64,000 nucleotides of DNA, taken from a bacterium. GTDB taxonomy: Bacteria; UBA8248. This document shows positions 31,906 to 51,195 of the stretch, in pieces. The notes beneath the pieces were generated by a model that ran no database searches, had not been told where the DNA came from, and was given only the letters and a program-made list of their open reading frames with translations. The first letter of the stretch is position 1. Every line of letters starts with the position of its first letter. The translations under genes and the position numbers were made by a program. Where the stretch lies: contig OZ253442.1 of assembly GCA_965261085.1 (NCBI GenBank), forward strand, positions 1,568,001 through 1,632,000, read 5' to 3'.

Positions 31906-32991
31906 CTATATCTCCTCAAGCAACTCTTTCCAGCGTTGTCTGTTGCTCGGCTGCGTGCCGTATTCGTCCAACTGCTTGCCGACGTTTCCCAGAAAATCTT
32001 TTCTGCCGGGTTCGCCGGTGAGGCAGAGGCCGACCCTGACGAGTTCATCGATGGAAAGACGATAAAGATTCGTGCCCGACGCCCATGTCTTGGCGAACAA
32101 ATCGGCAATTTCTTCTTTTTCGGGTGGATTCGCGCCGGGCGCATTGAACAGCAACTCGCGTAAGGAGGCCTTTCGCGCTTTAAACACCGCGCTTCTCACG
32201 TCCGCAAGCGTCACGTTTCTTTCCTTCACCTCTATTGCGAGTCTCAATTCTCCGTCGCCGCCGATGCACTCGATATCTCCGGCCATACCCGTCGCTTGAT
32301 CGGCAGCGTTTATCGCGTGGCGCTTCACCTCCCTGTAAATTCCAAAATACCTGCCGAACGTCTCGAACAAGGCCGCCGCAACGGAAAGCCCCCGGTCGCC
32401 TCCGCTGCTTTCGGACAAAAATTCACCGATGAGCTTTTCCGTCTGCTCGATGCTCACTCTCTCCGGCACGATGTATTCGAAAACGAGTTCGGCGAATTTC
32501 CCGTGAATGCTCCGTAACGTCTGCGACATGCGCAGGCGCGCGTATTCTTGCGAACCTCGCCGTTCGACCTCATCCAGAACCCGATACAGTAAAACCCACT
32601 CTTCTTTTCCTTTGACGTTTTGGGGATTTTCTTCAAGGCGCGCCTTGCGGAGGGGCTTGCTTACATACGGGTCAGGGCTCGTACCCAAGACGGACTGGTT
32701 TTCCGCTGACCATGGAACGATTACTTTGTTTGAAAAACTTCTGGGGTCCCACTGCGAATCGGAATCGCCACTGCCCTTTTGCAGGCAAAGGCAATCCAGC
32801 TTGGGGTCGGTGAGTTTTCCGAGCAACTGGGTCGGCAAACAATATCGAATCGAAACAAAGCGGCTGCCGACGAGTTTGGCGATATCCTGGTTTATTTCCC
32901 CACTTTCTTCTTGAGTTACTATTTCCCAAAGTTCATCCAGCAACTCACGCGCCGATTCAACATCCGGGGAGATTTTCTTCTCCGCCACCAT
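31906..32991 (-). CDS. SacI-family-like restriction endonuclease
   Basis: PTQLLGK, DPRS, LGTSPDPYVSKP, and AADQATGMAGDIEC...AIEVKE (PD-(D/E)xK); overlaps the MTase gene. Confidence 0.75.
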   Translation of the reverse strand: MVAEKKISPDVESARELLDELWEIVTQEESGEINQDIAKLVGSRFVSIRYCLPTQLLGKLTDPKLDCLCLQKGSGDSDSQWDPRSFSNKVIVPWSAENQSVLGTSPDPYVSKPLRKARLEENPQNVKGKEEWVLLYRVLDEVERRGSQEYARLRMSQTLRSIHGKFAELVFEYIVPERVSIEQTEKLIGEFLSESSGGDRGLSVAAALFETFGRYFGIYREVKRHAINAADQATGMAGDIECIGGDGELRLAIEVKERNVTLADVRSAVFKARKASLRELLFNAPGANPPEKEEIADLFAKTWASGTNLYRLSIDELVRVGLCLTGEPGRKDFLGNVGKQLDEYGTQPSNRQRWKELLEEI

Positions 32992-33931
32992 TATCTCCCG
33001 GATGAAAGTTCAACCACAAAGATTCCTGTCTTTGCCCCTTCGATGAATTACACGTCTTGGTCGGCGCATCGATTCTCACCCAATCGGCGAACAGCCTGTC
33101 GTAGAGAGCTGTCCTGTACCCCGATACGACGGCCCTGCCGCGAATGGAATGCAGCATATCGGCGAGCTCCGCGTGTTCCTCGTCCGTCATCTCGTATCCA
33201 TAGGCATTGGAATCGTTGCGGCTTTCGTGCACATACGGGGGGTCCATGTAAAACAACGTATCTTCCGTGTCGTAGCGTTCGATGAGTTCCAACGCGGGGA
33301 CATTTTCAATCTGCACCCGCAGAAGTCGCTGGACTATCTCAGGCAGCCCGTCGATGGCGCCTAGCCAGCGCGAAACCGCTCCGGCCATACCCGCCCGGGA
33401 GGTGAGCACGCAATGGGCCCAGCGACCCTCGCTGCTCGTTTGGGCCAAGCCGGTGCGCGTTTGTCTGGCTCTTACATAAAACCTTCTCGCCCTTTCCAGA
33501 CTGGGCAAGTCGGGTTCGAAACGACACGCCTTGACGAGTTCTTCCCGTGAAAACGGCGTGAGGCTGATCGCCTTGATCAGTTCCTCCCCGTGGTTCCTCA
33601 ATGTTTCGAAGAAATTGACCAGTTCCGAATCGAGGTCGTTGTATGTTTCCACCAAACTGGGTTTTCGGTTGATCAAAATCGCCGCCGATCCGCCGTATAC
33701 ATCACAAAAATGCACGGCGTCGTCCGGCAAATGCGGCAAAATGAAATCGAGGTGCGAGAATTTTCCGCCATACCAGCCAAAGGCGATCATCTTCTTCCGC
33801 CTTCGGCTCGCGTTCTTCACTATCCGCCTGCGGTTAATCGACCTTTGCATTTCATGTCCTTTTGACCCATTTGCTTCTGTGGGTACACTAGTAGCCTCAA
33901 CAGACGTCATTTCGCTCTGTTTCGCTCTCAA
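32957..33931 (-). CDS. Dam-like (D12, alpha-class) DNA adenine methyltransferase; start uncertain
   Basis: WYGGK, DVYGGSAA, YNDLD and YMDPPY. Confidence 0.9.
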   Translation of the reverse strand: MRAKQSEMTSVEATSVPTEANGSKGHEMQRSINRRRIVKNASRRRKKMIAFGWYGGKFSHLDFILPHLPDDAVHFCDVYGGSAAILINRKPSLVETYNDLDSELVNFFETLRNHGEELIKAISLTPFSREELVKACRFEPDLPSLERARRFYVRARQTRTGLAQTSSEGRWAHCVLTSRAGMAGAVSRWLGAIDGLPEIVQRLLRVQIENVPALELIERYDTEDTLFYMDPPYVHESRNDSNAYGYEMTDEEHAELADMLHSIRGRAVVSGYRTALYDRLFADWVRIDAPTKTCNSSKGQRQESLWLNFHPGDNGGGEENLPGC

Positions 33932-34036: not shown

Positions 34037-34558
34037 CTAAAAAGGCAGCCAGCCGAATCCTGTAATGAATCCCCGGAGATAGCAAATTTGTCCGCCGTGC
34101 TGGATGTTGTCGGCGGCCACCCTGCCCAGATAGTCCCCGATTTTGATGGTCTGGCCCATCGTGGCGGAGATTTCCTTGTCCAGATCCTCGGGCGAGAGGT
34201 TCTCCAGCACCGAAGACGCACGCGCCCGAACGGCGTCGGCGTAGCCAAGCAGGTTTTCTTTCTTGCACTCGAGGCTTATCACTTGTTCGAGTGAATCCCC
34301 AAAGCCCATTTGCCCCGGGTTCGGTTCCATGCCGAATTTCTCGTGCCACTTATCTGAAATCCAGAACTGCTCCTGGCCTGAGGCGTCCGCAAAGGCGATG
34401 TCCTCGACCCTCGTCTTGTGCCAGATCAGCCAGCCGATGGTGTTGTCCTGATCGCTCGGCCGCTTGATGAGGTCCGCATCCTCCAGCCCCTCCAGGGCCC
34501 GCCTGACGAGGCTGTCGCTCATCTCCAGCATGCCGGAAAGTATTTTTGCGCCGTTCAT
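34037..34558 (-). CDS. DinB/YfiT-family protein
   Basis: NTIGWLIWH and C-terminal QHGGQICYLRG. Confidence 0.8.
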   Translation of the reverse strand: MNGAKILSGMLEMSDSLVRRALEGLEDADLIKRPSDQDNTIGWLIWHKTRVEDIAFADASGQEQFWISDKWHEKFGMEPNPGQMGFGDSLEQVISLECKKENLLGYADAVRARASSVLENLSPEDLDKEISATMGQTIKIGDYLGRVAADNIQHGGQICYLRGFITGFGWLPF

Positions 34559-34753
34559 GAAAAACTCCCCTTTTCGAGTAGTGCGCCTGATGAATTTCAT
34601 AACAAACCGTATGCGCAGGCATATTCCTCTTGCGCTCCGCCGTCAAGGTTGCATGGGAGTGGATTTGCGCTCGTCCGCCTTGTCGGGGAGCAGGATATGG
34701 GCCATGCTTGCGGGTGTTCGCCTTGCCGCCCGAGGACCGAGACGGGTGAGTTC

Positions 34754-35470
34754 ATGAAATCGTTTTTGTACCGGCCCCTGGCCTGGATGATCGCCATATT
34801 CATGCTGCCCGCCTGTTGGGCGGCGGCGTTTTCGTTCGGAATAAACCTCCCGGCTGCTTTTCTCACAGGCGGCGCGGGCTCGTTTATGCCTGCGCCGGAG
34901 GGCTGGGCCTTCATCGCGGGCGTTATCGCATACGCCCTCTGGCATCGCTTGCGTCCCCCTGAGTTTCTCTACGCCTTCGTCCATGAGTTCACGCATATGG
35001 CCTTCGCCCTGCTCACTGGCAAGAAGGTGAGTTCCTTTGAAGTCAACCGGGGGAGCGGGAAGGTGGGCTTGAGCGGAACGAACCCCGTCATCACCCTGGC
35101 GCCTTATTTCTTCCCGCTTCTGACGATCGTGGTCCTGCTTCTGGGCGCGACGCTCGACTGGATTTTTGGTTACCCGCAGATTCGCTGGGCGACGGCGTTT
35201 CTCGCCGGCCTCACGCTCTGCCTGCACGTCCTCATGACGTTCCGGGCCCTGGGCGCGTCGCAGCCCGACATTGCGCGCGGCGGGCGGGTTTTCTCCTGGG
35301 CCTTCATCTTTTTCTTCGGATTTGTCTTTATCGGAGGCGCCGCGCTCGTCTCGACGGGGGGTTGGGGGGTGGCGGCTTCATACGGCGCGTCGATTTGGCG
35401 TGAAAGCTGGAATGCGTATGCGCTGCTCTTTGGCTGGATGGAGAGAATCGCATGGGGTGTCGGCTCTTGA
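34754..35470 (+). CDS. Membrane protein with HExxH motif (peptidase M50B-like)
   Basis: FVHEFTH, TLAPYF and multiple TM segments. Confidence 0.7.
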   Translation: MKSFLYRPLAWMIAIFMLPACWAAAFSFGINLPAAFLTGGAGSFMPAPEGWAFIAGVIAYALWHRLRPPEFLYAFVHEFTHMAFALLTGKKVSSFEVNRGSGKVGLSGTNPVITLAPYFFPLLTIVVLLLGATLDWIFGYPQIRWATAFLAGLTLCLHVLMTFRALGASQPDIARGGRVFSWAFIFFFGFVFIGGAALVSTGGWGVAASYGASIWRESWNAYALLFGWMERIAWGVGS

Positions 35471-36084
35471 AACGCAAGGTTTTCGCACCGAGGTTTCGAT
35501 ATTGCTTGATGGTGATATCACTCCTCGTGGTTTCATCCTGCGCCTATGAGGTATCGACGATACAGGGCGTCGCCAGGCCGGGGAAAATACGAACGCTCGA
35601 GCGCATCGCCGTCGCCCCTTTTCACTATCCGAGTGACTGGACGGGACTTTTCCGGGACGTCTACGCGCAGGCGGGGCTCAAGGCGCCCGAGGGGAAGAAA
35701 ATCGAGTTGATCCAGGGCGCCTTTCTGGTTCGAGACGCCCTCAGCGCCAAGGGGTATATAGTTCTTCGCTGGCCGAAGGAACTCGAAAAAACAAAAGCGG
35801 ACGATTTGCTGAACGCGGAAGGCGAAATCGCGGGCGCCCATTTGGAGAGGTTGAGAGATTCGGGCGCGCAGGCGGTGGTGTTGGCCCGTGGCGGCCGCAC
35901 CTGCGCAGACGTCGAAGTGTGTACGGCGAGGGTCGAAATACGCCTGCTGGACTTAGGCTCCCAAGAGGAGTTGTGGGAATCAGAAGCCGGCGCAACGACG
36001 GCGCTATCCCAGGGAGATGAGATGAAAGCCGCCGTTTCCGAGGCGCTCGACGAATTTCCCAGGCAATCGTCCGATTCGGGTTGA
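35452..36084 (+). CDS. Putative lipoprotein
   Basis: Hydrophobic segment ending in VSSC; RIAVAPF...RLLDLGSQEELW pattern. Start uncertain. Confidence 0.6.
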   Translation: MGCRLLKRKVFAPRFRYCLMVISLLVVSSCAYEVSTIQGVARPGKIRTLERIAVAPFHYPSDWTGLFRDVYAQAGLKAPEGKKIELIQGAFLVRDALSAKGYIVLRWPKELEKTKADDLLNAEGEIAGAHLERLRDSGAQAVVLARGGRTCADVEVCTARVEIRLLDLGSQEELWESEAGATTALSQGDEMKAAVSEALDEFPRQSSDSG

Positions 36085-36128
36085 ACCAGGAAAATTCCGT
36101 CCATATAGCCAATCCCACCCATGACGAT

Positions 36129-36165
36129 TTGTCGTTTTGCCGGGCATAGTGTGACAAAATGACAA
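36129..36165. promoter_or_regulatory. Putative enhancer (bEBP upstream activating sequence)
   Basis: Inverted repeat TTGTCGTTTTG-N15-CAAAATGACAA (10/11 match), centred about 107 bp upstream of the predicted sigma54 start. Confidence 0.6.
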
Positions 36166-36227
36166 TTTTACCAATCGTATTAATTCTTATCTCATTGATA
36201 AATAATGAGTTTTTTGTTTTTGATAAA

Positions 36228-36243
36228 TGGCACGGCACTTGCA
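36228..36243 (+). promoter_or_regulatory. sigma54 (-24/-12) promoter
   Basis: TGGCACGGCACTTGCA matches TGGCACG-N4-TTGCW; preceded by an AT-rich tract. Confidence 0.85.
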
Positions 36244-36253
36244 TATTATATGA

Positions 36254-36408
36254 GCAGTGCTAGTCGCGGCGTTCTTAGGCGGCACGCCTCGGTTAGCCGG
36301 CGCGGGGAGTAGCTGATTGGGTCGGCGCTCCTCCGCCACGCAATTATCCATCTCGCGTCTTTTACCCCTCGCGAGAGCCTCCTCCCCGCAAGGGGAGGAG
36401 GTTTTTTT
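36254..36408 (+). ncRNA. Candidate sigma54-dependent small RNA (~155 nt)
   Basis: Lies between the sigma54 promoter and a strong terminator, has several hairpins, and has no RBS-led ORF. Confidence 0.6.
36378..36408 (+). terminator. Rho-independent terminator
   Basis: CCTCCTCCCC-GCAA-GGGGAGGAGG followed by T7. Confidence 0.9.
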
Positions 36409-36555
36409 ATTCGTCCGTTTTTCTCGGGTGTAATTTCCCCCTGCATGGTTTTCAAGCGGGCGATATTGGTTTATGGTGCTTTTCGTATGCAATCATGCGG
36501 TGTCTAGTCTGCAGGATGCCGAGAATTCACCCATTCAGGAAATGAGGAGTCGAAA

Positions 36556-37554
36556 ATGGCTACGGGTAAAGTGCGTCTCGCCTCTGTCGGGCTTGGCTGG
36601 TGGGGCGGTGTTCTGGTGGACGCCGTGAACCGCGGTGGTTCCGGCGAAGTGGTTTCGGGTTTCGCGCGCAGCGAGGATGCCCGAAAAGCGTTTTCGGAGA
36701 AATTCGGCTGCCGGACGGCGGACAGCCTGGACGATCTCTGGAACGACCCGGAGGTGGAGGGCGTCATCGTCGCGACGCCTCATTCGACGCATCTGGATAT
36801 AATTTCCGCGGCCGCGTCGGCGGGTAAGCATGTTTTTGTCGAAAAACCACTCACCCTGACCGTCGATGAAGCCAAAAAGGCGATCGAGGCGACTTCGAGC
36901 GCGAATGTCACCCTGCAGATAGGACATCACCGCCGCCGCCTCGGCGCGAACCGCAAGATCAGGGAGATGATAGACAGCGGCGAGTTGGGCGTGTTGCATC
37001 AACTGGAAGCCAACCTCTCGCTCCCCATGGGGTTCGAACCCAAGCAGGGCTGGCGCAACGACCCGGCGGAATGCCCCGCGGGCTCGATGACGGGCTTGGG
37101 CGTCCACATGATCGACAACCTCCAGTATCTGGCCGGCCCCGCGAAAAAGGTGGCCGCGTTCAGCAAGAAGGTGCTGGGCAAAACGAACCTGGACGACACG
37201 ACGAGCATCATCATCGAATATGAAAACGGCCCGCTGGGCTATATCGGGTCCACCTTCGTTATTCCCAAAATCTGCGACACTGCGGCTTTCGGGACGAAGA
37301 TGAGAGCCTATAGCGAAGAGGAAGGCGGAAAACTCTACGTGGCGAAAGTCGGCGAGGAGGCCCGGACGGAGGTTGACGTCGTGGGTGGAGACGCCCTGGC
37401 GGATGAGATGAATGAATTCTGCAGGTGCACCCGGGGCGAGGCGACTCCCGAAACGGGCGGGCCCGAGGGGCTCGAAGTCGTCGCCGTCCTCGAGGCGGTC
37501 GTGCAGAGCGCGACCACGGGTCAGGTGGTGGATGTCGCATCCCTTCGCGGATAG
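36556..37554 (+). CDS. Gfo/Idh/MocA-family oxidoreductase
   Basis: VGLGWWG, GKHVFVEKPL and GVHMID. Confidence 0.92.
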   Translation: MATGKVRLASVGLGWWGGVLVDAVNRGGSGEVVSGFARSEDARKAFSEKFGCRTADSLDDLWNDPEVEGVIVATPHSTHLDIISAAASAGKHVFVEKPLTLTVDEAKKAIEATSSANVTLQIGHHRRRLGANRKIREMIDSGELGVLHQLEANLSLPMGFEPKQGWRNDPAECPAGSMTGLGVHMIDNLQYLAGPAKKVAAFSKKVLGKTNLDDTTSIIIEYENGPLGYIGSTFVIPKICDTAAFGTKMRAYSEEEGGKLYVAKVGEEARTEVDVVGGDALADEMNEFCRCTRGEATPETGGPEGLEVVAVLEAVVQSATTGQVVDVASLRG

Positions 37555-37581
37555 CTTGCGAGTCTTATTCTGGAGGAAAAG

Positions 37582-39828
37582 ATGGTTCAGATGACGCATG
37601 TCGGCACGTCGCCGACGAAAGACGACGCTTTGGCGAAAGCAGTCGGCGATACCGTTTACGGCGATGATTTCCATTTGCCGGGCGAGATATACGGGCGAGT
37701 CGTACGCGCCTCGATGACGCCGGCGAAGATCAAGGAGATAGACGCGAGCGCGGCGCTCGCCCTGCCGGGCGTGCACTGTGTTTTGACCGCAAAGGACATT
37801 CCCGGGAAAAACGAGGGCCGCTATCCCGATTTCCCGGTGCTGGCCGAAGATGTTGTGGCGGACATCGGCGACGCCGTGGCCCTGGTGGCCGCCGACACCC
37901 GTGATCTGGCCGAAGAAGCGGCCTCGCTCGTGCGCGTCGCCTACGAGCCGTTGCCCGGGGCGTACGACTTCGCCGGCCTCGAGGAGGGCGAGGTGGTCTG
38001 CGACTGGAAGACCGACAAGGGAGACGTGGAGGCCGGCTTTGCGGCGGCGTACGTGGTCGTTGAGAACACCTATTTCTCCGCCTGTCTGGATCACGCCTTC
38101 ATCGAGCCCGAAGGCGGCGTGGCCTGGGTGGACGAGCGCGGGGTGGTGAACATCCGCGTGCCCACCCAGATGATCGAGAACTACCAGAACGTGGCGAGGA
38201 CGCTTGATTTGCCGCTCAGCCGTGTCCGCTACGAGTGCCCGATGCTGGGCGGCGCCTTCGGCGGCAAGGAGCACCCGCTGCTGGGCGCCTTCATGGCGCT
38301 TCTGGCGATCAGGACGGGGCGGCCCGTGCGCATGGCCTACTCGCGCGAGGAGACCATGAACACCGGCAGCAAGAAGCACCCCTTCCTCATGAAGTACAAA
38401 ACCGGCGTAACGAAGGACGGAAAGCTCACCGCGATAGAAGTCGACATCATCGGCGATGCGGGCGGGTATGCAGCCAACAGCAAGGGCCTGCTCCTGGGGG
38501 CGCTCGTGGTGAGCGGAGGCCCCTATGATATCCCCAACGCCCGGGGCCGCGCGCGCGCCGTCAAGACGAACAACCCCTTCACCGAGGCGATGCGCGGCGT
38601 GGGCGCGAACCAGGTGTGCTTCGCCTATGAGGCGCAGATGGATGAACTCGCGGCGCGCCTGGGGATGAACCCCCTGGAGTTTCGCGAGATGAACTTCATC
38701 ACCAAGGGCGAAACCCTCATGCAGAACCAGCCCGTGCCCTCCCGGGTGATGCTGCCCGAACTGGCGGCGGAGACCAAGAGGCTCATCGGCCGCCCGGCGG
38801 GCCGCGTCCCAGAGAAGGACCACGGCCCCTGGCGCGTGGGCGTCGGGGTCGTCGCGAACATGGGCGGATACGGCAGGCCCAGGAACGAGGGCGAGGTCTA
38901 TGTGTCCATCGACGAGGACGGCAGCGTGAGCGTGCGCACCGGCGCCTCGGACGTGGGCGCGGGCCAGACCCAGACGAATCGCCAGATTGCCGCCGAAGCC
39001 TTAGGGATCGCACTGGATGACGTGACGGTGACGATGTCGGATTCCCACGTCACCCCGCTCGTTGGGGTTACGGCCGGCAGCCGCCAGACGATGATTTCGG
39101 GCGGTTCGTGCTACCGCGCGTCAAGCGAACTGAGGGATAGAATCCTGAAAGGCGCCGCCGAGTTGCTCGAAGCGGATCCTGAGGATCTGGATATTCAAGG
39201 CGGAAGAGTTTTCGTCAAGGCCGCAGAGGAGCGCGGGGTCGCCTTTGCGGAAGCCGCGGCCCAGTGCAAGAAGATGGGGGTCGACCTCCACACCGTGGGC
39301 AAGACGAAAATCGGCGTCCACGAGTTCGAGGGCCACGAGCAATACGGCGACGCGGGCGGCTGGATGGATTACGTGTTCGGGGTTCACGCGGCGGAAGTCG
39401 AGGTGAACGTCGATACGGGCGAGCTTCGCGTGCTCAACTACTGGTCGGGCCACGACGTCGGCCAGTCCATCAACGTGCAGCACGTGGAAGGACAGTTCGA
39501 GGGCGGCGCGATGATGGGCGTCGGCCACGCACTGGCCGAAGAAGTTCTGACGCAAAAGGGCGCGCTCCTGAACAACGAGTTCCACGGCTACCTCATCCCC
39601 ACCTCGGTGGATACGCCCGAGTGGGACAACGTCATCCTCGAATCCGGCGAAGGCCTCGGTCCCTACGGGGCGAAGGGAATCGGCGAGCCCCCCTGCACGG
39701 CGGGAGCCGCGGCGGTGGCCTGCGCGGCGGGCCAGGCGATAGGCGCGCGCATCACGCGCATCCCCATCACGCCGGATCACGTCATGGAGGTCCTTGGCCG
39801 CCTGCGCACCAACGGAGATCAGGCCTAG
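37582..39828 (+). CDS. Xanthine-dehydrogenase-family molybdopterin-binding large subunit
   Basis: GGAFGGK, AMRGVG, GAGQ, TAGSR and GAKGIGEP. Confidence 0.92.
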   Translation: MVQMTHVGTSPTKDDALAKAVGDTVYGDDFHLPGEIYGRVVRASMTPAKIKEIDASAALALPGVHCVLTAKDIPGKNEGRYPDFPVLAEDVVADIGDAVALVAADTRDLAEEAASLVRVAYEPLPGAYDFAGLEEGEVVCDWKTDKGDVEAGFAAAYVVVENTYFSACLDHAFIEPEGGVAWVDERGVVNIRVPTQMIENYQNVARTLDLPLSRVRYECPMLGGAFGGKEHPLLGAFMALLAIRTGRPVRMAYSREETMNTGSKKHPFLMKYKTGVTKDGKLTAIEVDIIGDAGGYAANSKGLLLGALVVSGGPYDIPNARGRARAVKTNNPFTEAMRGVGANQVCFAYEAQMDELAARLGMNPLEFREMNFITKGETLMQNQPVPSRVMLPELAAETKRLIGRPAGRVPEKDHGPWRVGVGVVANMGGYGRPRNEGEVYVSIDEDGSVSVRTGASDVGAGQTQTNRQIAAEALGIALDDVTVTMSDSHVTPLVGVTAGSRQTMISGGSCYRASSELRDRILKGAAELLEADPEDLDIQGGRVFVKAAEERGVAFAEAAAQCKKMGVDLHTVGKTKIGVHEFEGHEQYGDAGGWMDYVFGVHAAEVEVNVDTGELRVLNYWSGHDVGQSINVQHVEGQFEGGAMMGVGHALAEEVLTQKGALLNNEFHGYLIPTSVDTPEWDNVILESGEGLGPYGAKGIGEPPCTAGAAAVACAAGQAIGARITRIPITPDHVMEVLGRLRTNGDQA

Positions 39829-40727: not shown

Positions 40728-43595
40728 ATGCAAAGAGCGTCCACGACGGAGCAGTTTTTTAATTCCGTGTTCGGCCAAGTATTGCGCGAAAAACACCCGC
40801 TTTGGAAAGAATCCATTGGTGTTGAGCAAACTCATGTCCTGCAAGGATCTGCGGGAAAACAGCCTGACCTGATACTTTCGCTTCCGGATACCTCTCCGGT
40901 GGCGATAGAGACGGAGTTCATGCCTGCCGCCACGGTTGAGGAGGACGCCGCTTCCCGCCTGGGTGAAAGTTTGGCGAGTGACGCTAGAACGATAGAAAAC
41001 GTCATTGCGCTTCGCATTCCGTCCGAACTGCGGACTGTAGATCAGGGTGGAATTGCAGACGCAATCAGGGAAGCGAATTTCACCTATTGTGTTCTTTCTG
41101 AAACAAAAATTGGGGACACTGAAAGATGGCCCGAGAAGGGCTGGCTGCAAGGAGGCATCGACGACGTGGCGAACTGCCTGGAATCGGTGAGCCTCTCCGA
41201 ATCCCTCATATCAAGAACTACGGACGTTCTTGAAGAGGGAGTTACCCAAGCAGCTAACATCTTGAAAACGGCGGATTTGAGCGTACACCAAAAAATCGCT
41301 GAGCATCTGCACCAGTCTTCAGGAGAGCAGACCAACCGCATGGCGGTCGCCATCATCGCCAACGCCGCCGTGTTTCATACGCGCATCGAGGGACGGCAGG
41401 GGATATCCCCGATTGGTGAATTGAGGGGCCCGACCGGGTTCATCAATATCGAAGTCATCGAATGTTGGCAGTGGATCATCGAAAACGTCAACTACTGGCC
41501 GATCTTCAAGATTGCGTCGGATTTACTGAGCAACATACCGACGGTGCAAGCGAATCGGGTGTTGAACCTGCTTTACAGGACGGCGTCCAAACTGGCGGAT
41601 ATGGGCGCTACGAGCCTGAACGATCTTTCCGGTCGCATGTTCCAGAAGCTCATAGCCGACAGGAAGTTCCTCGCAACTTTTTACACCCTGCCGGTGTCCG
41701 CCACCCTGCTTGCCGAGCTTGCCGCCTCAAGATTGCAAACAGACTGGCGAGACGCGGATGTGGTGAAGGACTTGAGAGTCGCTGATCTCGCTTGCGGAAC
41801 CGGAACCCTCATCGGCGCGCTCTACCACGCCATTTTGACCCGCCATCGCCGAATGGGGTGTGACGACGCGGCGATTCATTCCGCCATGATCGAGGAATCC
41901 CTTTACGCTTTCGACATCATGCCCGCCGCCACGCATCTTGCGGCATCCACATTGTCGAATGCTCACCCCGACATCGTCTTCGGGACCACCAGAATCGTTA
42001 CGATGCCCTACGGCTACGACAAGAACAAGCATCCGCACATCGGTTCGCTGGAACTCATTGACCACATCTACATAACGCCCCTTCTTAGCTTGGGCGAAAA
42101 GAGAATCGTTGGCCGTAGGAGCAAGAAGACGGATAAGAGACTCGGCGTTCCACCTTGGTTGTTTGATATCGTGATTATGAATCCACCCTTCACGCGCCCG
42201 ACCAACCACGAAACGGCGGAAGTTCCTGTTCCCTCCTTTGCCGGCTTCAACACTTCCGAAGATGAACAGAAAGCTATGAGTGCCCGGTTAAAACAAATAC
42301 GCAAAAGCCTCCCTCAACCCTTTGGGCACGGCAACGCCGGACTGGCGTCGAACTTCATCGATCTGGCGCACGTTAAGCTGAAACCGGGCGGCGTGCTGGC
42401 GTTGGTCTTGCCTGCGACCTTCGCCCAAGGCGAATCCTGGAGCAATGCGCGGAATATGTTGGCTGCTCGTTACCAGGACATTACTATCGCCTCCATCGCA
42501 AACGACGGGGCGACCAACCGGGCCTTTTCCGCTGATACCGGGATGGCGGAAGTGTTGGTTATCGCTACCAAGAAGATCGATGCGGACCGTAACCCCACAT
42601 TTCAGTTCGTCAATCTTAGGCGGCGTCCGGCGCATCACGTCGAGGCGGTCGAGTTGGCGAAGTTCGTCGCCGAACTGGATCGTCGACCGGGAGTCGGACG
42701 CATCGCCATCGGAAGTGAAGATAGTAACGGCAATTATATTAACGCCGAGCAATTCAGTTGTGGCTGTGCGGGCGTGGCGGAAGTTAATCTTGCCAGGTTC
42801 ATGCTGTCGCTTTCGGGTGGCGAGTTGTTGGCGATCAGAAGGAACGAAACAACGAAATTACCTGTTACGACGTTGAGTGAATTAGGGAATCGCGGCTTGC
42901 TTAGTCGCGACCTTGACGGACCGCCACCAAGGGGACCGTTCGACAAGGAATCGTTGCGACCGGGGCAAGTTCCAACCTACCCCACGCTTTGGAGCCACGA
43001 TGCGAGGCGTGAGCGGGCCTTTGTAGTTCATGTGGATTGCGAATTGCTGGCGCGAAGGGAATACGAAGAGCAAGCAGCCGACGTCTGGAAGCGCTTTGCG
43101 TCCCGCCTTCACCTGACAATTGATTTTCGGCTTAACTCGCAAAGTCTGGCGGCTTGTCTGACACCGGAAAAAGCCCTAGGCGGCAGGGCTTGGCCGAATT
43201 TCATCCTGGAGGAAGAGGGGCATGAGGGTGTTGTTATGCTGTGGCTGAACTCGACGCTTGGATTGATGAGTTATTGGTGGGGGGGAACCAGACAACAACT
43301 TGGCCGGGCAGTAGTGAAAATCACGGCTCTGCCATCGTTGTTGTCAATCGATCCTCGACAATTCGACAAGGCAATCCTCGCGAAAGCTGACATTTTGTTC
43401 GAGCGATTCCGCGACGTGGAGTTTCTACCCGCAAACGAGAGCTATCATGACCCCAACAGGAAGGCTCTCGATGAAACCTTGCTTGTCGAGTTGCTCGGTG
43501 TTCCAAAGGATATCGTGGACGACTTCGACGTCATACGACGGCAATGGTGCGCCGAGCCGAGCGTCCACGGTGGGAAAAGCACGAAGCCTTACTAA
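40728..43595 (+). CDS. Fused type IIG-like restriction-modification protein (nuclease-like N-terminus, gamma-class N6 MTase, TRD)
   Basis: PDLIL...VAIETE, FYT, DLACGTG and MNPPF. Confidence 0.8.
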   Translation: MQRASTTEQFFNSVFGQVLREKHPLWKESIGVEQTHVLQGSAGKQPDLILSLPDTSPVAIETEFMPAATVEEDAASRLGESLASDARTIENVIALRIPSELRTVDQGGIADAIREANFTYCVLSETKIGDTERWPEKGWLQGGIDDVANCLESVSLSESLISRTTDVLEEGVTQAANILKTADLSVHQKIAEHLHQSSGEQTNRMAVAIIANAAVFHTRIEGRQGISPIGELRGPTGFINIEVIECWQWIIENVNYWPIFKIASDLLSNIPTVQANRVLNLLYRTASKLADMGATSLNDLSGRMFQKLIADRKFLATFYTLPVSATLLAELAASRLQTDWRDADVVKDLRVADLACGTGTLIGALYHAILTRHRRMGCDDAAIHSAMIEESLYAFDIMPAATHLAASTLSNAHPDIVFGTTRIVTMPYGYDKNKHPHIGSLELIDHIYITPLLSLGEKRIVGRRSKKTDKRLGVPPWLFDIVIMNPPFTRPTNHETAEVPVPSFAGFNTSEDEQKAMSARLKQIRKSLPQPFGHGNAGLASNFIDLAHVKLKPGGVLALVLPATFAQGESWSNARNMLAARYQDITIASIANDGATNRAFSADTGMAEVLVIATKKIDADRNPTFQFVNLRRRPAHHVEAVELAKFVAELDRRPGVGRIAIGSEDSNGNYINAEQFSCGCAGVAEVNLARFMLSLSGGELLAIRRNETTKLPVTTLSELGNRGLLSRDLDGPPPRGPFDKESLRPGQVPTYPTLWSHDARRERAFVVHVDCELLARREYEEQAADVWKRFASRLHLTIDFRLNSQSLAACLTPEKALGGRAWPNFILEEEGHEGVVMLWLNSTLGLMSYWWGGTRQQLGRAVVKITALPSLLSIDPRQFDKAILAKADILFERFRDVEFLPANESYHDPNRKALDETLLVELLGVPKDIVDDFDVIRRQWCAEPSVHGGKSTKPY

Positions 43596-43636
43596 AGGCA
43601 AACCACGGGTGGCTCGCGAGCCGCCCCTACGGAATA

Positions 43637-44187
43637 TCTCCCTCTTCGGTCGGGAGGCTGCTTCTCCACGCAGCCTCACCCAGCATTTCCCCGCAATTGC
43701 CGTACACCCTGATATCCCGTACTTCGCTATCGTGCGCGCAGCGCGGAGGAGCAATTTCTTGCTTCCCGGTTTGGTCAATTCCTCCCGCCTTGGTCGGCAA
43801 ACGCTCGCTCCTCACTTGCGTTTGACCCTCCATCATCAGTCGGGATTGACGCGCAAAGGATAAGAGGCTTCCTCATGGAATCAGGCGTTAGGGTGAGAAT
43901 GAAGACGGCAATTCCTCGCTCGGTTTTGATCATCGTGAACCGGGGTGGCGCGCTCATGGACTTAAACGTAACGAGGATAATAAAAATAATCCAATTTCCT
44001 GTAAATATCGATAAATTAACGATGTTTTTCGATAAATACCTGAAAAGTGGGCGCGAGGAAATAACGTGATAATTAGTTATATTTCAGCTATTTATGGCGT
44101 TATATTCAAGCAGAAAACAAACATTTTATCGAATTAAAAAAAATTCTTCGTCCCCCGCATTTACCCGCACCTGCCCGCATTTGCGCA
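43637..44187 (+). repeat. RM-border element, copy B (small ORF 43875..44069, internal start at 43956)
   Basis: Highly similar reverse complement of 47008-47510. Confidence 0.85.
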
Positions 44188-44195
44188 AGTGGGAA

Positions 44196-45257
44196 TCATT
44201 GAGCGCCGCCGAGACAGGGAGATATCTCCCGGATAAAGCGATCGGCCACGGCGCGCCAGCAGTAAGACGCCGCACGCTCGATTCCGCGGCGGCCCAATTC
44301 ACCACGCAAGGCTTTGTTCCTCAGTAGATTGATGAGCGCATCGGCTAAAGATTCATCACTATCCAGCGGCAGCAGAATACCTGCATCACCCACTATCTCA
44401 GGCGCCGCCGCCACTTCGAGCGCCACCACGGGAAGGCCCACCGCCATCGCTTCCAAGAACGCGATGCCGAAGCCCTCCTGAAGCGAGGGCAGGCAGAAAA
44501 CATCCGCCCCCGCGTATTCATGGCGCACAGCTTCATCCTCGGGTACCTCGCCCAGGAGTGTCACGGCGTTCTCGATACCTAGGCTGCTCACCTGTTTTTC
44601 AAGGTTCTTCAAAGACGGTCCGCCCCCCACGATGCGCAACTTCGCATCGGGCACGGCCGCGAGCACCCTCGGCAAGGCCTGGATGAGGCTTTTGGTGTTC
44701 TTTCTGGGATATTGCCGCGCCACCGATAAAATGATTCGCCCCGATGGGTTCCTCATTTCGCGCACATGCTTCCAATCGGCAGAATGAATTCCGTTTCCCA
44801 CGACGCCGACTTTCTCGGCTGACAACCCATATGCCTCGCAGGCCACGCCCCGGCTGTATTCGCTGGTGACGATGACCCTGTCGGCGCGTTGCGCGTTGGC
44901 GCGCTCGAGATGGGAGAGCGCGCGTAGATACTGACGCGGCGCACCGCGTTCGAATCGCATTTCATCGGCCGATATCCCGTGCAGATACACGATGAAGGGG
45001 ACATTGATGTTCAAATCGAAACCGTCGATGTCGAAACCCACGATGAAGTCGAAATCATCGGGTGATATTCGATCCTTCAACTCCAGATTGTACAGGAGCC
45101 TTTGCAGTAGAAGGCTCGCTGCCCGCTCGTTCGGGCCGATGATCTCCACCATATGCCCGTTTGCTTCCAGCCCGCCCGCCAGGCCCATGATGGCAGCCGC
45201 CGTCCCTGAGCCTTTCGCTATATCGAGGGTCCAGGAGTTCAAAAAAGCGATTCGCAA
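44196..45257 (-). CDS. Glycosyltransferase family 4 (GT-B)
   Basis: PSLQEGFGIAFLEAMAVGLPVV; TTG start with GGAGG RBS. Confidence 0.92.
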   Translation of the reverse strand: MRIAFLNSWTLDIAKGSGTAAAIMGLAGGLEANGHMVEIIGPNERAASLLLQRLLYNLELKDRISPDDFDFIVGFDIDGFDLNINVPFIVYLHGISADEMRFERGAPRQYLRALSHLERANAQRADRVIVTSEYSRGVACEAYGLSAEKVGVVGNGIHSADWKHVREMRNPSGRIILSVARQYPRKNTKSLIQALPRVLAAVPDAKLRIVGGGPSLKNLEKQVSSLGIENAVTLLGEVPEDEAVRHEYAGADVFCLPSLQEGFGIAFLEAMAVGLPVVALEVAAAPEIVGDAGILLPLDSDESLADALINLLRNKALRGELGRRGIERAASYCWRAVADRFIREISPCLGGAQ

Positions 45258-45272
45258 ACCTCCCCTCCCCTC

Positions 45273-45305
45273 AAAATAAAAGAGGGCGTAATTTCACGCC
45301 CTCTT
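45273..45305 (-). terminator. Putative terminator after the PCD gene
   Basis: AAGAGGGCGT...ACGCCCTCTT hairpin with a U-rich tail on the minus strand. Confidence 0.55.
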
Positions 45306-45334
45306 CGTGGGTCCTCACAATAAGGATGCTCTCC

Positions 45335-45667
45335 TTATAAGGCCTGATCCGATTTGGCCGCGAAGACGAAATCGCTCTCAGTCAATCCGTCTATCTTGTG
45401 CGTCCACACCGTGACCTTCACCTTCCCCCACGCCAGATAGATATCGGGGTGATGGCCCTGCTCCTCGGCCATCTCACCCACGCGGTTCGTGAAATCAAGC
45501 GCCGTCTGAAAATCGGGAAAGCTGTATTCTTTTTCCAGATGGTGCTCATCCACCACGCGCCAATCACCACCCAACTGTTCTTGCAAGGCGGAGAGAGCCT
45601 CTCCCTGAAGCGGGGGCACGCCACCTTTGCACGGCACACACTCTTTGGCCGCAAGCTCGATGCTCAT
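45335..45667 (-). CDS. Pterin-4-alpha-carbinolamine dehydratase
   Basis: CVPC, GHHPDI and WTHKIDGLTESDF. Confidence 0.93.
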   Translation of the reverse strand: MSIELAAKECVPCKGGVPPLQGEALSALQEQLGGDWRVVDEHHLEKEYSFPDFQTALDFTNRVGEMAEEQGHHPDIYLAWGKVKVTVWTHKIDGLTESDFVFAAKSDQAL

Positions 45668-45767
45668 GGTTTTTTTGCTCCTCTATATTAATGATGAAAT
45701 AACCTGTTGACTCGCCTCGAAAGAACGCTTCATCATCGCGTCTTTCACAAAAAGCCGCAAGACCGTG

Positions 45768-46913
45768 TCATGCGCTCTTGAGTGTGGGCATCACGTCCTG
45801 TGCGAACTTTTCCATGCTGGAGGCAGCTTTCTCCACGCTCAAATTTCCGAAATGAAAGTAAATCACCATACCGCCGAAGCCCATTTGTTCTTTTTGCGTT
45901 ATCAGTTCATCACGCACTTCATCGGCGGTCCCTATGGCCGCCATGCCGTCATTCATGAGTTGCGCAGGGGTTCTCGCTTCCTCCCCGAGCAATCCCAAGG
46001 GTTTCCCCCGCGCAACTTCGGTTTCAGGGTTTGAAGGTTTGGGAGCAGGCAAACTGCCCGGAAAACGGCGTTTGAGTTCCGCCAGAATCTCCGGCTGCGC
46101 GCCGTAGAGATTTCGCCAGTAATACGAGAGCGCAGGCCCCGCCTCATCAAATGCCTGGGAGCGCGAATCCGCCACGTAAACCTGATGTTCGAGCCATACG
46201 TGCTCCGCTCCCGCCTCCCAGCCATGAGCGCGGCAGCGCTCGCGGTAATATGCCGCTTTTTTGAGCAAATCGTTGAAGGGCCTGTGGCTCAGCACCACGG
46301 GTGTTCTCATCCTGGCGCCCCAGTCGAGCGAGGCCTCGGAATCCGCCGGAAAGAGGATCGGTGGATGAGGCTGCTGCCAGGGCCGCGTCCAGAGCTGGCA
46401 GCGCGGGTAGTGGAAATACTCTCCCTCCCAATCAAAGGGATCAGGCTCGCTCCAGGCCTTGAGAATGAATTCCCACGCCTCCTGAAAACGCCCGCGGCTC
46501 TCGGCCGGATCCACGTTGTAGGCCAGATATTCCCTGTGCGCGCCGCGCAGGAAACCGGCTACGATGCGTCCGCCGCTCAGCACGTCGAGCGCCGCAATCT
46601 CCTCCGCCACGCGCAGCGGCTGGGGATAGAGCGGCAGGCAATAGCCGAGTATCGCGATTTTGGCCCGCCTCGTCCTCGCGGCGATGTGGCCCGCATAGAC
46701 GCCCGGCGTGGGCATCGAGCCGAAGTGCGTGCCGTGGTGCTCATTGAGGCCGATGCCGTCGAGCCCCGCCGCCTCCACGCGTTCCCAGAAGCGAAAATGC
46801 GCTTCCCAGAGCGCGTGGGCCTTCTCGGCGTCGAACTCCGACGCATCGTGCGGATAGCGCGTCTTGCCCTTCAGATACGGCCAGGGAATGGTGTCGAACG
46901 AATAGATTTCCAG
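45768..46913 (-). CDS. LLM-class flavin-dependent oxidoreductase (apparent CTG start)
   Basis: NEHH, PLRVAEEIAALDVLSGGR and QQPHPP; GAGGAGG lies 7 nt before the CTG. Confidence 0.88.
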   Translation of the reverse strand: MEIYSFDTIPWPYLKGKTRYPHDASEFDAEKAHALWEAHFRFWERVEAAGLDGIGLNEHHGTHFGSMPTPGVYAGHIAARTRRAKIAILGYCLPLYPQPLRVAEEIAALDVLSGGRIVAGFLRGAHREYLAYNVDPAESRGRFQEAWEFILKAWSEPDPFDWEGEYFHYPRCQLWTRPWQQPHPPILFPADSEASLDWGARMRTPVVLSHRPFNDLLKKAAYYRERCRAHGWEAGAEHVWLEHQVYVADSRSQAFDEAGPALSYYWRNLYGAQPEILAELKRRFPGSLPAPKPSNPETEVARGKPLGLLGEEARTPAQLMNDGMAAIGTADEVRDELITQKEQMGFGGMVIYFHFGNLSVEKAASSMEKFAQDVMPTLKSA

Positions 46914-47007
46914 GAAACCGCCTCCTCGCCGAATGCAATGCCCGTTCACCTTCTTGTAACACCCTTTCACGCCGCTGCAAACGGAGGCGGGCCTTACGTC
47001 AAGCGCG

Positions 47008-47510
47008 TGCGCAAATGCGGGCAGGTGCGGGGAAATGCGGGGGTCGAAGAATTTTTTTTAATTCGATAAATTTCGATAAAATGTTTGTTTTCTGCTTGAA
47101 TATAACGCCATAAATAGCTGAAATATAACTAATTATCACGTTATTTCCTCGCGCCCACTTTTCAGGTATTTATCGAAAAACCTCGTGAATTTATCGATAT
47201 TTTCAGGAAATTGGATTATTTTTATTTTCCTCGTCACTCCTGAGACCATGAGCGCGCCTCCCCGGTTCACGGTGAGCAAAACCGAGCGAGAAATTGCCGT
47301 CATTACTCTTGTCCCATCGCCTGATTCCATGAACACGCCTCCTTTCCCACAGTAAATTCCGACACGCCCAGAAGGTGGGGCGATAACGGGAATTGTTTTC
47401 CCGCGTCGCGCGCACGATAGCGAAGTACGGGGTTTCAGGGAGTACGGCAAATGCGGGGAAGTGCGGGGTGAGGCTGCGTGGAGAAGCAGCCTCCCGACCG
47501 AAGAGGGAGA
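47008..47510 (-). repeat. RM-border element, copy C (small ORF 47136..47330, internal start at 47249)
   Basis: Inverted relative to copy B; same decamer arrays and core. Confidence 0.85.
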
Positions 47511-47865
47511 GTGCGAGATCATCCACCGGTGAGGCTGGCATTTTAGGCGAAGGGGGAGGGAGTGTTTGCGCTTCTCCTCCTCGGGAGGCCCGACGGAAAG
47601 ACGAAAGAGGAAAAATACTCCCCCCTTGAGGGTCAAGCCCGATTGAAGAATGAGGGATTGTCAGCAAGACAAGGGCGAAGCCCGCAGTCGCGCTGGTGGG
47701 GGGTCAATCGTGACCGATGAGAGAGGGTTTCGTTTTTGTAGGGGCGGACCTGCGTGTCCGCCCGCGCGGTTCGCCGGTCGAGAAAGCCCGCTATTTGATC
47801 CTCACGCAAAAAGCCGATGCCGCTCCGCCCTTGCGCATCCCCGCCCAATCGGCGAAAAGATAGCC

Positions 47866-50800: not shown

Positions 50801-51195
50801 CCACGGCGAGGGGAGGCCAGATGATGAGCGATGATTTCGCCGTAACGGCGGGCTGGGGGCATTACGGAGCGGGCGAGGCCGTGATGCCGGGTTCTGGCCG
50901 CGCCGTCGAGCGGGCCTATACGGAAGAGGAACGCGCCGCCCTGGGCGATGCTCGGTCTGTGCTCGGCGAGACGGCTTTCGATGTTTATCTAAACGATCGC
51001 GCCTTGTGGCGATGCGTCCCCGCCGCCGTCTGGCGGTATAAGCTAGGCGGCTATCAGGTCTTGAAGAAGTGGCTCTCCTACCGCGAACAGGCCATCCTCA
51101 AACGCTCCTTGAAGCCTGAGGAAGTCCAGCACTTCACCGACACGGCGAGACGCATCGCGGGGATTTTGATGCTGACGAAAGGGACGCATCCGTAA
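47866..51195 (+). CDS. Fused restriction-modification enzyme (PD-(D/E)xK nuclease, N6 MTase, type ISP-like C-terminal specificity domain)
   Basis: RPDFG...VEVK, GVWYTP, LDPCCGTG, GNPPY, YRPFD, EWPRIP and GGYQVLKKWLSYR; no helicase motifs seen. Confidence 0.85.
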   Translation: MSATNRNLTAAVEGYFSDLARTRASGGATGELSYHTPLANLLNAVGGALKPKAFCVPELADQGDGRPDFGLFAARQIQKSKPREGQTPERGVVEVKSAEDDAWLTAEGEQVSRYWNRYRLVLVTNTRDFALVGERAGRPIMLERFRLAESMEDFERRLERPRVFARSMGAGLAEYLTRALSHQAAIAEPKDLAWLLASYARDGLSRVERIDASGDALAALRGALEEGLGVRFEGERGLSFFHSTLVQTLFYGVFSAWVLWARQLPSPAGPFNWHEAVWHLRAPVMRSLFQQISDPGRLRSLNLVEVLDWTAAALDRVDREAFFARFAEGEAVPYFYEPFLEAFDPALRKQLGVWYTPNEVVRYMVARVDKALKDDLGIADGLAADNVYVLDPCCGTGAYLAEVLKRIAQNLETQGVGALAGARVKEAALNRVFGFEIMPAPFVVSNLQVDLTMRELGAPLAEEERAGVFLTNALTGWEPKANKPLPFPELEEERDRAERVKQETPVLVILGNPPYNGLSGFDMDEEQELMVAYRKTKRVRKPAGKGLNDLYLRFFRMAERRIVEKTGRGVVCFISNYSWLDGLTSAGMREHYLHAFDAIRIDCLNGDIRSGGKTPDGEPDGSVFTTDSAVGIKVGTAVATLVRKEDHAPTERIDFRHLWGGAKFKREKLLATAEAKPGTLYKSVEPVLPLGLPFVPVRVSEDWFDWPALPDLFSTSFPGVVTNRDPFLVDIDLDRLQARIADYFNPSLSHEEIARRYPIIMNTARHFDAHSTRDALLKRGGPNESGFIRYSYRPFDNRWLYWEAIGTLLHRPRADYMLHLFEGNMWLSAAPHLRKDVTEPQACFAQHAASLHLIERGTDMFPAWLRDEDDKVKKEKRRPNLSEAAQGYLKRIGANVEDLFHHVLATLHDPAYRAANAGALRMEWPRIPLPGRAKDAAEILAESAARGRELARLLDTDAPVPGVTQAPLRSEMAAIAVPATARGGQMMSDDFAVTAGWGHYGAGEAVMPGSGRAVERAYTEEERAALGDARSVLGETAFDVYLNDRALWRCVPAAVWRYKLGGYQVLKKWLSYREQAILKRSLKPEEVQHFTDTARRIAGILMLTKGTHP

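Follow-up and report, generated by a model that had tools for sequence, protein, structure and literature searches.

Introduction

In Vibrio and Pseudomonas, small RNAs (sRNAs) are the main output of NtrC-family proteins that act together with sigma-54, namely Qrr with LuxO in the former and CrcZ with CbrB and NrsZ with NtrC in the latter, and these RNAs work with Hfq. Sigma-54 promoters carry GG at -24 and GC at -12 at a fixed spacing, with the consensus TGGCAC-N5-TTGC. Hfq-independent sRNAs with C-rich loops are represented by RsaE/RoxS of Firmicutes. GlmY and GlmZ are sRNAs transcribed from sigma-54 promoters at which an NtrC-family regulator acts at conserved upstream sites and integration host factor (IHF) is needed in between; they exist as homologous copies, and in some of these a sigma-70 promoter has taken over (PMC3045617). 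In this study, we analysed a 64,000-nt stretch of DNA (the window; all coordinates are positions in it unless a contig is named) that corresponds to positions 1,568,001–1,632,000 of the forward strand of contig OZ253442.1 (assembly GCA_965261085.1; Bacteria; UBA8248). It contains a predicted sRNA gene whose upstream sites, promoter and terminator recall glmY/glmZ and whose RNA most likely represents a previously undescribed family of a known kind, the enhancer-dependent, sigma-54-transcribed small RNA.

The genome that contains the window is a single contig of 4.27 Mb and is 96% complete. It was analysed within a set of 51 genomes of the phylum, comprising 42 genomes of the family in which the RNA occurs (genera g1–g9, g1 being the genus of the window) and nine genomes of three other families.

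Structure and covariation of the predicted RNA

The RNA is predicted to be about 155 nt long and to occupy positions 36254–36408 on the plus strand, as judged from folding and from a covariance model (R1); its start (+1, ~36254) was placed from the geometry of the promoter. Folding of 36254–36410 (157 nt) gave -79.1 kcal/mol, with a z-score of -4.65 against 200 dinucleotide shuffles, none of which folded as well (0/200). The fold starts with hairpin H1 (36259–36297), in which a variable, covarying stem carries the near-invariant apex GGCGUUCWUAGGCGGCACGCC, and continues with the near-invariant hairpin H2 (36299–36337), in which a GAGGAG arm is paired to a CUCCUC arm below a GAUYGGGUC apex. A 14-nt linker (36338–36351, ACGCAAUYAU...), unpaired in the fold and partly conserved in the family, leads to hairpin H3 (36352–36375), which has a CTCGCG stem and a C/U-rich loop (36358–36369; TCTTTTACCCCT, given also as UCUUUUACCCCU) that is the candidate seed region. 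The transcript is predicted to end at an intrinsic terminator (36377–36408, stem-loop 36377–36401), detected both by a terminator scan and in the fold, with a GC-rich stem that includes CCUCCUCCC, a GCAA tetraloop and then U7. H2 and the terminator are both built of GAGGAG/CUCCUC-type pairing. These features agree with the original prediction for this locus, which had described from the sequence alone about 155 nt of hairpins, a GCAA-loop terminator with T7, a CTCGCG-stem hairpin with a single-stranded loop, and an ATG (36250) lying upstream of the +1. There is no ATG within the RNA, and a small peptide starting at 36250 was rejected because neither this ATG nor its frame is kept between species.

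R1 was built from an alignment of 34 distinct RNA sequences from seven genera, and the four-helix structure was tested on the same sequences, with the 3' partners slid by 1–3 columns and 500 shuffles as controls. Paired cells amounted to 97.4% in the alignment versus 43–51% with slid partners, and pair changes on both sides numbered 19 versus 3–9; none of the 500 shuffles reached any of the values observed (0/500). Most of the covariation is in H1 (9 of the 16 pairs changed on both sides); in the terminator 4 of the 10 pairs did so, and 10 of the 15 pairs of H2 never vary across the 34 sequences. The H3 stem is kept within the genus of the window; elsewhere an unstructured pyrimidine-rich stretch is found at that place. 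A pyrimidine/C-rich stretch just before the terminator is a feature of every genus, and its presentation in a hairpin loop is confined to the window's genus. With its own promoter and intrinsic terminator, a conserved structure and no conserved reading frame, the element has the features expected of a trans-encoded sRNA gene.

Distribution in the family

A blastn search with 36100–36420 detected the unit in all 22 same-genus genomes (E values of 1e-32 to 5e-143) and partial matches in seven family genomes outside that genus; the window's genome contains one copy. R1 extended this to 37 of the 42 family genomes. The check proposed with the original prediction, namely the collection of homologues together with a covariation test, came out in favour of the element. 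All genomes of g1 (22/22), g9 (4/4), g2 (5/5) and g8 (2/2) and the single genomes of g4, g6 and g7 (1/1 each) contained the RNA; g3 (0/1) and g5 (0/4) gave no match. The zero for g3 is uninformative because the contig there breaks off 220 nt ahead of the oxidoreductase gene that follows the RNA in other genomes. Outside this family, R1 found no match in the nine genomes that represent three further families of the phylum (0/9). Weak R1 matches (E values of 2e-4 to 9e-3) were also obtained; the six that were aligned consisted of unrelated 3' ends of coding genes with terminators and were discarded as false positives. A pattern derived from H2 matched 31 stretches in the species-representative genome collection, all in metagenome-assembled genomes whose titles read Nitrospinota, Nitrospinaceae, Candidatus Tectomicrobia or 'bacterium'. 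As judged from these searches, the RNA does not occur beyond a single family, which belongs to an uncultured lineage. Because the unit is conserved whole in relatives and its helices covary, it is beyond what chance would produce, and the conservation of promoter, upstream site, fold and terminator across seven genera favours the earlier proposal of an independent sigma-54 sRNA gene.

Promoter and upstream sites

The consensus TGGCACG-N4-TTGCA promoter named in the original prediction was recovered by a motif search as a sigma-54 (-24/-12) promoter with a 12/12 match (TGGCACGGCACTTGCA, 36228–36243, plus strand). Within the window it is the sole match at ≤1 mismatch, which is not significant by itself, as 34 of 100 shuffles contained at least one such match; across the 4.27-Mb genome it is the sole 12/12 site among 172 sites scoring ≥10/12. 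A census of promoters and upstream sites covered 39 covariance-model matches in the loci examined, which comprised 33 distinct promoter-bearing copies, 2 antisense terminator artefacts and 4 promoterless copies linked to a gene for an ARPP-1 domain. TGGYAY-N5-TTGC is kept in all 33 copies not linked to ARPP-1, and the distance from the promoter to H1 is fixed in 32 of the 33. The exception, in genome G015 (locus L022), has an insert of ~70 nt between the sigma-54 promoter and H1 that contains a hairpin of its own; this locus occurs twice in the assembly (contigs C1 and C8).

Upstream of the promoter are two palindrome-like sites 30 bp apart, both on the plus strand: a distal site (TGACGATTTGTCG, 36122–36134), which is a 13-bp palindrome of the TGAC-N5-GTCA type centred at ~-126, and a proximal site (TGACAAAATGACA, 36152–36164), centred at ~-96, with the family consensus TGACA-N3-TGTCA. 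The two upstream inverted repeats of the original prediction are therefore present; their type is TGAC-N5-GTCA and not TGT-N11-ACA as had been stated. The proximal site (≤2 mismatches) lies ~76 nt upstream of the promoter in 33/33 promoter-bearing copies. The distal site is kept in the same-genus loci and is represented in other genera by TGAC-N5-GTCA or TGCC-N5-GGCA variants, a TGCC-N5-GGCA palindrome standing in its place in g2 and g7. The AT-rich spacer noted earlier contains a palindromic block, TATC-N5-GATA (36188–36200, centre ~-60), which is conserved in the alignment and resembles an IHF-type bending site. The sequence WATCAANNNNTTR, which we take to be the IHF consensus, was found at ≤1 mismatch in the spacer of 25 of the 34 copies versus 6.1 expected, and exactly in 6 of the 34 versus 0.36 expected; the window's genome gave seven HU/IHF-family matches. 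For a sigma-54 promoter, we looked for activator sites ~80–150 bp upstream together with rpoN and an enhancer-binding protein, in addition to motif and spacing. Here the motif occurs at the proper spacing behind such upstream sites, in a genome with one rpoN and two enhancer-binding proteins.

A sigma-70-like promoter (TTGATA-18-TATTAT, 36220–36249, 10/12) overlaps the sigma-54 promoter, as a sigma-70 promoter does at Escherichia coli glmY. It was rejected as a conserved element, its -10 box being present only in the closest relatives and its -35 box being unconserved. An 18-mer of the distal site recurs exactly at two other places in the genome (G000:C1:1876167, plus strand, and 3300314, minus strand), in both cases ~75 nt upstream of a strong sigma-70-like promoter (TTGATT-17-TATAAT). 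The two promoters head large genes that are paralogues of each other and do not differ in their 5' regions. Another regulator may thus use the distal site, or the site may link these two genes to the same signal.

Comparison with known RNA families

A permissive scan of the window region against Rfam 15 gave as its best alignments anti-hemB with 20.3 bits (gathering threshold 49.5) and ar14 with 14.8 bits (gathering threshold 58.8), and at gathering thresholds none of the 12 loci scanned, which represent seven genera, matched any family. The earlier statement that the sequence matched no recognised sRNA was thereby borne out, and a full-text search of a paper library for sRNAs of this lineage found nothing relevant.

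In the order of its elements, i.e. upstream sites, IHF-like block, sigma-54 promoter, sRNA and terminator, the locus has the same layout as GlmY/GlmZ with GlrK/GlrR (QseE/QseF) of Enterobacteriaceae, in which copies without a sigma-54 promoter also occur, as they do among the second copies of the window RNA (PMC3045617). Among the systems compared, the promoter design of the window RNA is closest to that of glmY/glmZ (PMC3045617). The RNA itself, however, has no sequence or structure match to GlmY/GlmZ (Rfam thresholds were not reached). The enterobacterial system has three GlrR sites, whereas the window RNA has two 13-bp palindromic sites of the TGACA-N3-TGTCA type; moreover, the GlrK/GlrR genes are adjacent to the sRNA, whereas the candidate kinase and regulator genes are 32 kb away, in an unrelated lineage.

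The locus resembles Qrr, CrcZ and NrsZ in having sRNA as the apparent output of an NtrC-type regulator, here with one palindrome preceding two different small-RNA promoters (see below). It differs from them in motifs and biology and shows no homology, and Hfq, with which those RNAs work, was not found here. A C-rich single-stranded loop beside the terminator that could occlude G-rich ribosome-binding sites, in a genome with no detectable Hfq, recalls RsaE/RoxS, but there is no homology to these RNAs and the target screen described below gave no signal.

Two further families were considered. In the cuckoo RNA family of Alphaproteobacteria (CcsR / alpha-r14 / RSs0680), two to four adjacent hairpins each present CCUCCUCCC in the loop, a nonamer that resembles the anti-Shine-Dalgarno sequence (PMC4615179). 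The window RNA contains this nonamer, and ar14 is among its best weak Rfam alignments; membership was rejected, however, as CCUCCUCCC is found a single time, where it is base-paired as the 5' arm of the terminator stem, and the loops of H1–H3 differ (PMC4615179). Promoter type and lineage are different as well, and the 14.8 bits obtained for ar14 are far below its threshold. The Burkholderia anti-hemB RNA (RF02837), the best Rfam alignment, resembles H3 and the terminator here in that a terminator comes directly after a short hairpin whose loop is C/U-rich; the alignment (E = 0.11) spans 36351–36424 alone, leaving H1 and H2 outside.

Candidate activator and a second candidate small transcript

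Two proteins of the genome contain a sigma-54 interaction domain at the strength of an enhancer-binding protein. One is an NtrC-family response regulator with REC, AAA+ and HTH_8 domains (3482–4861, plus strand), whose start overlaps the end of a gene for a PAS-HisKA-HATPase sensor kinase (1251–3485, plus strand); both were assigned by domain scan and form the candidate activator pair. The regulator reached no curated NCBIfam subfamily cut-off. The other is a GAF-AAA-HTH protein encoded 2.7 kb from an intergenic 11/12 promoter of its own that lacks the palindrome.

Of the genome's sigma-54-like sites, 13 are intergenic. The palindrome lies within 260 nt upstream of only two of these: that of the window RNA and one at genome position 216787 on the minus strand. 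Because just 28 palindromes (≤1 mismatch) exist genome-wide, chance sharing by two small-RNA promoters is unlikely. The second site precedes a candidate sigma-54 small transcript of ~190 nt (G000:C1 ~216590–216960, minus strand; locus L092:585–960), with the palindrome TGACATTATGTCA ~175 nt upstream of the promoter TGGCATGATTCGTGCA; there is also an AT-rich block, and another half-site lies at a distance of 30 bp from the palindrome. This transcript is highly conserved and unrelated to the window RNA; its terminator faces a convergent gene and its fold has a z-score of -3.35. By blastn, the transcript with its palindrome, half-site, AT-rich block and promoter is kept in 21 of the 22 same-genus genomes and in none of the 20 genomes of other genera, and it had no Rfam match at gathering thresholds.

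The response regulator at 3482–4861 is the best activator candidate because the other enhancer-binding protein can be set aside, having its own nearby promoter, and because the upstream site is shared by the two small-RNA promoters. It is likely the activator of the RNA, as the original prediction had suggested. Of the 36 other RNA-bearing genomes, 35 contain an orthologue of the regulator (69–98% identity), and the one that does not is a 91%-complete assembly; among the five genomes without an RNA match, an orthologue was found in one, namely the g3 genome with the truncated contig. All four g5 genomes contain neither regulator nor RNA. This co-occurrence is only a hint of a functional connection, being essentially one evolutionary event.

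A bolder possibility is that one two-component system signals wholly via sigma-54 sRNAs, i.e. the window RNA and the ~190-nt RNA, with H1/H2 binding a conserved protein in a new ribonucleoprotein pathway; this proposal is speculative and, in our estimation, rather doubtful.

Proposed mode of action and genomic context

The element is rather probably an independent gene for a ~155-nt regulatory RNA of an undescribed family that acts in trans by base pairing. According to the model that we favour, the PAS kinase and the NtrC-family regulator, encoded 32 kb upstream (1251–4861), would sense a signal; the phosphorylated regulator would bind the TGACA-N3-TGTCA-type sites at ~-96 and ~-126, and an IHF-like bend at ~-60 would bring it to sigma-54 RNA polymerase at TGGCACG-N4-TTGCA. 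Transcription would start near 36254 and stop at the terminator (36377–36408). The RNA would then act in trans, its pyrimidine/C-rich single-stranded stretch (the H3 loop here) pairing directly with G-rich ribosome-binding regions, and the near-invariant H1 apex and H2 would point to a further conserved partner, either protein or RNA. No Hfq or CsrA domain was detected in the 96%-complete, single-contig genome, and direct pairing is therefore deemed the most likely mode. That the single-stranded stretch is kept in character among the genera is what would be expected of an anti-ribosome-binding-site seed, and the invariance of H2 and of the H1 apex, which exceeds structural need, suggests a conserved partner.

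The genomic context of the RNA was examined in the 30 loci first collected. A GFO/IDH/MocA oxidoreductase gene followed by a gene for a xanthine-dehydrogenase-family molybdopterin subunit lies directly downstream of the RNA in all 30, and a lipoprotein gene lies upstream in 27; in the remaining three loci the latter was not found, was cut off by the contig end or was ~3 kb away. Behind the terminator, outside the RNA, is a sigma-70-like block (GGTTTTCAAG ... TTGGKTTATGGTGC, 36447–36479, plus strand) that is near-invariant in 23 same-genus loci and that we infer to be a promoter (TTTTCA-17-TATGGT). It is followed, ahead of the oxidoreductase start codon, by a small covarying 5'-untranslated region (UTR) hairpin. 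In one genome, G030, there is a second full copy with its own sigma-54 promoter and both upstream sites. This copy follows a gene for a thiamine-pyrophosphate enzyme, and ~40 nt past its terminator is the end of a convergent 187-codon gene; a co-oriented 201-codon frame behind the copy resembles antisense noise. All four g5 genomes keep the oxidoreductase-molybdopterin operon (64–66% identity) without the RNA, and in the g5 genome examined the oxidoreductase gene begins 57 nt behind an M50B-like gene, with neither a lipoprotein gene nor the RNA in between. Because of the convergent context in G030, the g5 operon without the RNA and the sigma-70-like block behind the terminator, a trans-acting sRNA is favoured over a leader, and the alternative offered with the original prediction, in which the RNA would be an attenuating leader for the oxidoreductase genes, becomes less likely.

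Five same-genus genomes contain a second copy 5.4–7.3 kb downstream of the first, between the gene for an ARPP-1 domain (PF20208) and that for a sodium:solute symporter (L049:5130–5291, L043, L058, L064 and L091:3878–4039). They lack a sigma-54 promoter, share a conserved GCGCTTGYCYTGGATACANGAAAT upstream and have a U-tract that is weaker; they could be 3'-UTR-derived or sigma-70-driven paralogues.

Several observations count against an independent, base-pairing sRNA activated by the regulator. When five segments of the sRNA were screened with RNAduplex against 4252 start regions of the window's genome, which had been called crudely, the mean of the ten best energies was no better than with shuffled segments. 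The kinase, regulator, M50B-like, lipoprotein, oxidoreductase (GFO) and molybdopterin (MoCo) genes were unremarkable as targets, their start regions reaching at best the 4th percentile in 36 tests. The primary copy always lies directly upstream of the same operon, which fits a leader too, and the five promoterless second copies sit in a 3'-UTR- or leader-like position. The 5' arms of H2 and of the terminator can pair with each other, and as long as the 3' arm of the terminator has not been made, the nascent transcript has its minimum-energy fold in this form, so that an attenuation switch is conceivable. The distal upstream site is found also at the sigma-70-like promoters elsewhere in the genome, and the co-occurrence of RNA and regulator essentially comes down to a single lineage with reduced genomes, g5. 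Finally, metatranscriptome contigs (four runs, X15–X18, from two studies; depth 2–13) that map on 35000–38500 contain the 3' end of the lipoprotein gene and the operon from 36521 and carry nothing on 36076–36520, a contig-level result that speaks neither for nor against the RNA or read-through.

The alternative that survives best, itself a variant of the independent, trans-acting RNA, is that the RNA acts by binding protein, as a sequestering or scaffolding sRNA in which the H1 apex and H2 bind a conserved protein, with titration as in GlmY or CsrB-type RNAs; we regard this as unlikely. It would explain why ~40 nt of H2 (both strands) and the H1 apex are near-invariant over seven genera while neighbouring proteins fall to ~65% identity, and it agrees with the target screens, which gave no base-pairing signal; with no Hfq or CsrA found, any partner would be new. 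However, no candidate protein emerged, and the sole gene consistently beside the RNA encodes a lipoprotein, which is unable to meet a cytoplasmic RNA. The invariance of the stem can also be explained by overlapping constraints, such as alternative or target pairing.

Somewhat less likely still is a cis-acting leader or attenuator, in which the sigma-54 promoter would drive the oxidoreductase-molybdopterin operon and the terminator would be a conditional stop relieved by a ligand or protein. The co-oriented position directly upstream of the same operon in 30/30 loci and also in g2, the location of the second copies of five genomes upstream of a solute symporter, the aptamer-like mix of invariant loops and covarying stems, and the helix that the H2 and terminator 5' arms could form in the nascent transcript are all consistent with it. 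A riboswitch or attenuator should, however, always be upstream of a co-oriented regulated gene, whereas behind the G030 paralogue, which has a promoter and upstream sites of its own, lies a convergent gene, and the g5 operon is retained without the element. The near-invariant sigma-70-like block between terminator and start codon and the lack of a sigma-54 promoter in the ARPP-1-linked copies also argue against it. At full length, moreover, folds that lack the terminator are at least 17 kcal/mol less stable than the fold that contains it. The positions of the alternative helix never vary, so that covariation neither supports nor contradicts this helix.

That there is no RNA gene here, but a conserved DNA-level regulatory region with the terminator of an upstream lipoprotein operon, would suit the lack of a direct sign of transcription in the metatranscriptome contigs and the position of the element behind M50B-like and lipoprotein genes on the same strand, but is very improbable given RNA helices held intact by compensatory changes, a sigma-54 motif at a fixed distance from H1 in 32/33 copies (the exception being the 70-nt insert) and the movement of the whole unit into other contexts.

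Neighbouring genes

Upstream of the RNA, at 34418–36084, a gene for an M50B-like membrane metalloprotease homologue (HEFTH motif) overlaps that for the 210-aa lipoprotein (lipobox VSSC), which is LpoB/GNA1162-like by database leads. Genus g5 has kept the M50B-like gene but has neither the lipoprotein gene nor the RNA nor the response regulator. The GFO/IDH/MocA and molybdopterin genes (36556–39828) are unusually conserved, with 83–97% identity within the genus versus ~55–90% for the upstream genes, and no iron-sulfur or FAD subunit genes were seen adjoining them. In the window's genome the locus is flanked by genes of restriction-modification type (32957–33931 and 40728–51195), namely those for a D12 adenine methyltransferase, an Eco57I-like methylase and a type ISP enzyme; in relatives their place is taken by the ARPP-1 gene and the symporter gene with the second RNA copy between them.

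Conclusions

Very little is known about the regulatory RNAs of uncultured lineages. The element described here combines upstream sites, a putative bending site, a sigma-54 promoter and a terminator in a near-textbook architecture within such a lineage, and it plausibly belongs to a dedicated sensor pathway in a genome with just two enhancer-binding proteins. It therefore offers a directly testable entry point into the regulatory RNA of this lineage. The two-sRNA regulon, if true, would extend the principle of an NtrC-type regulator with sRNA as its main output, known from Vibrio and enterobacteria, to a distant lineage that apparently lacks Hfq.

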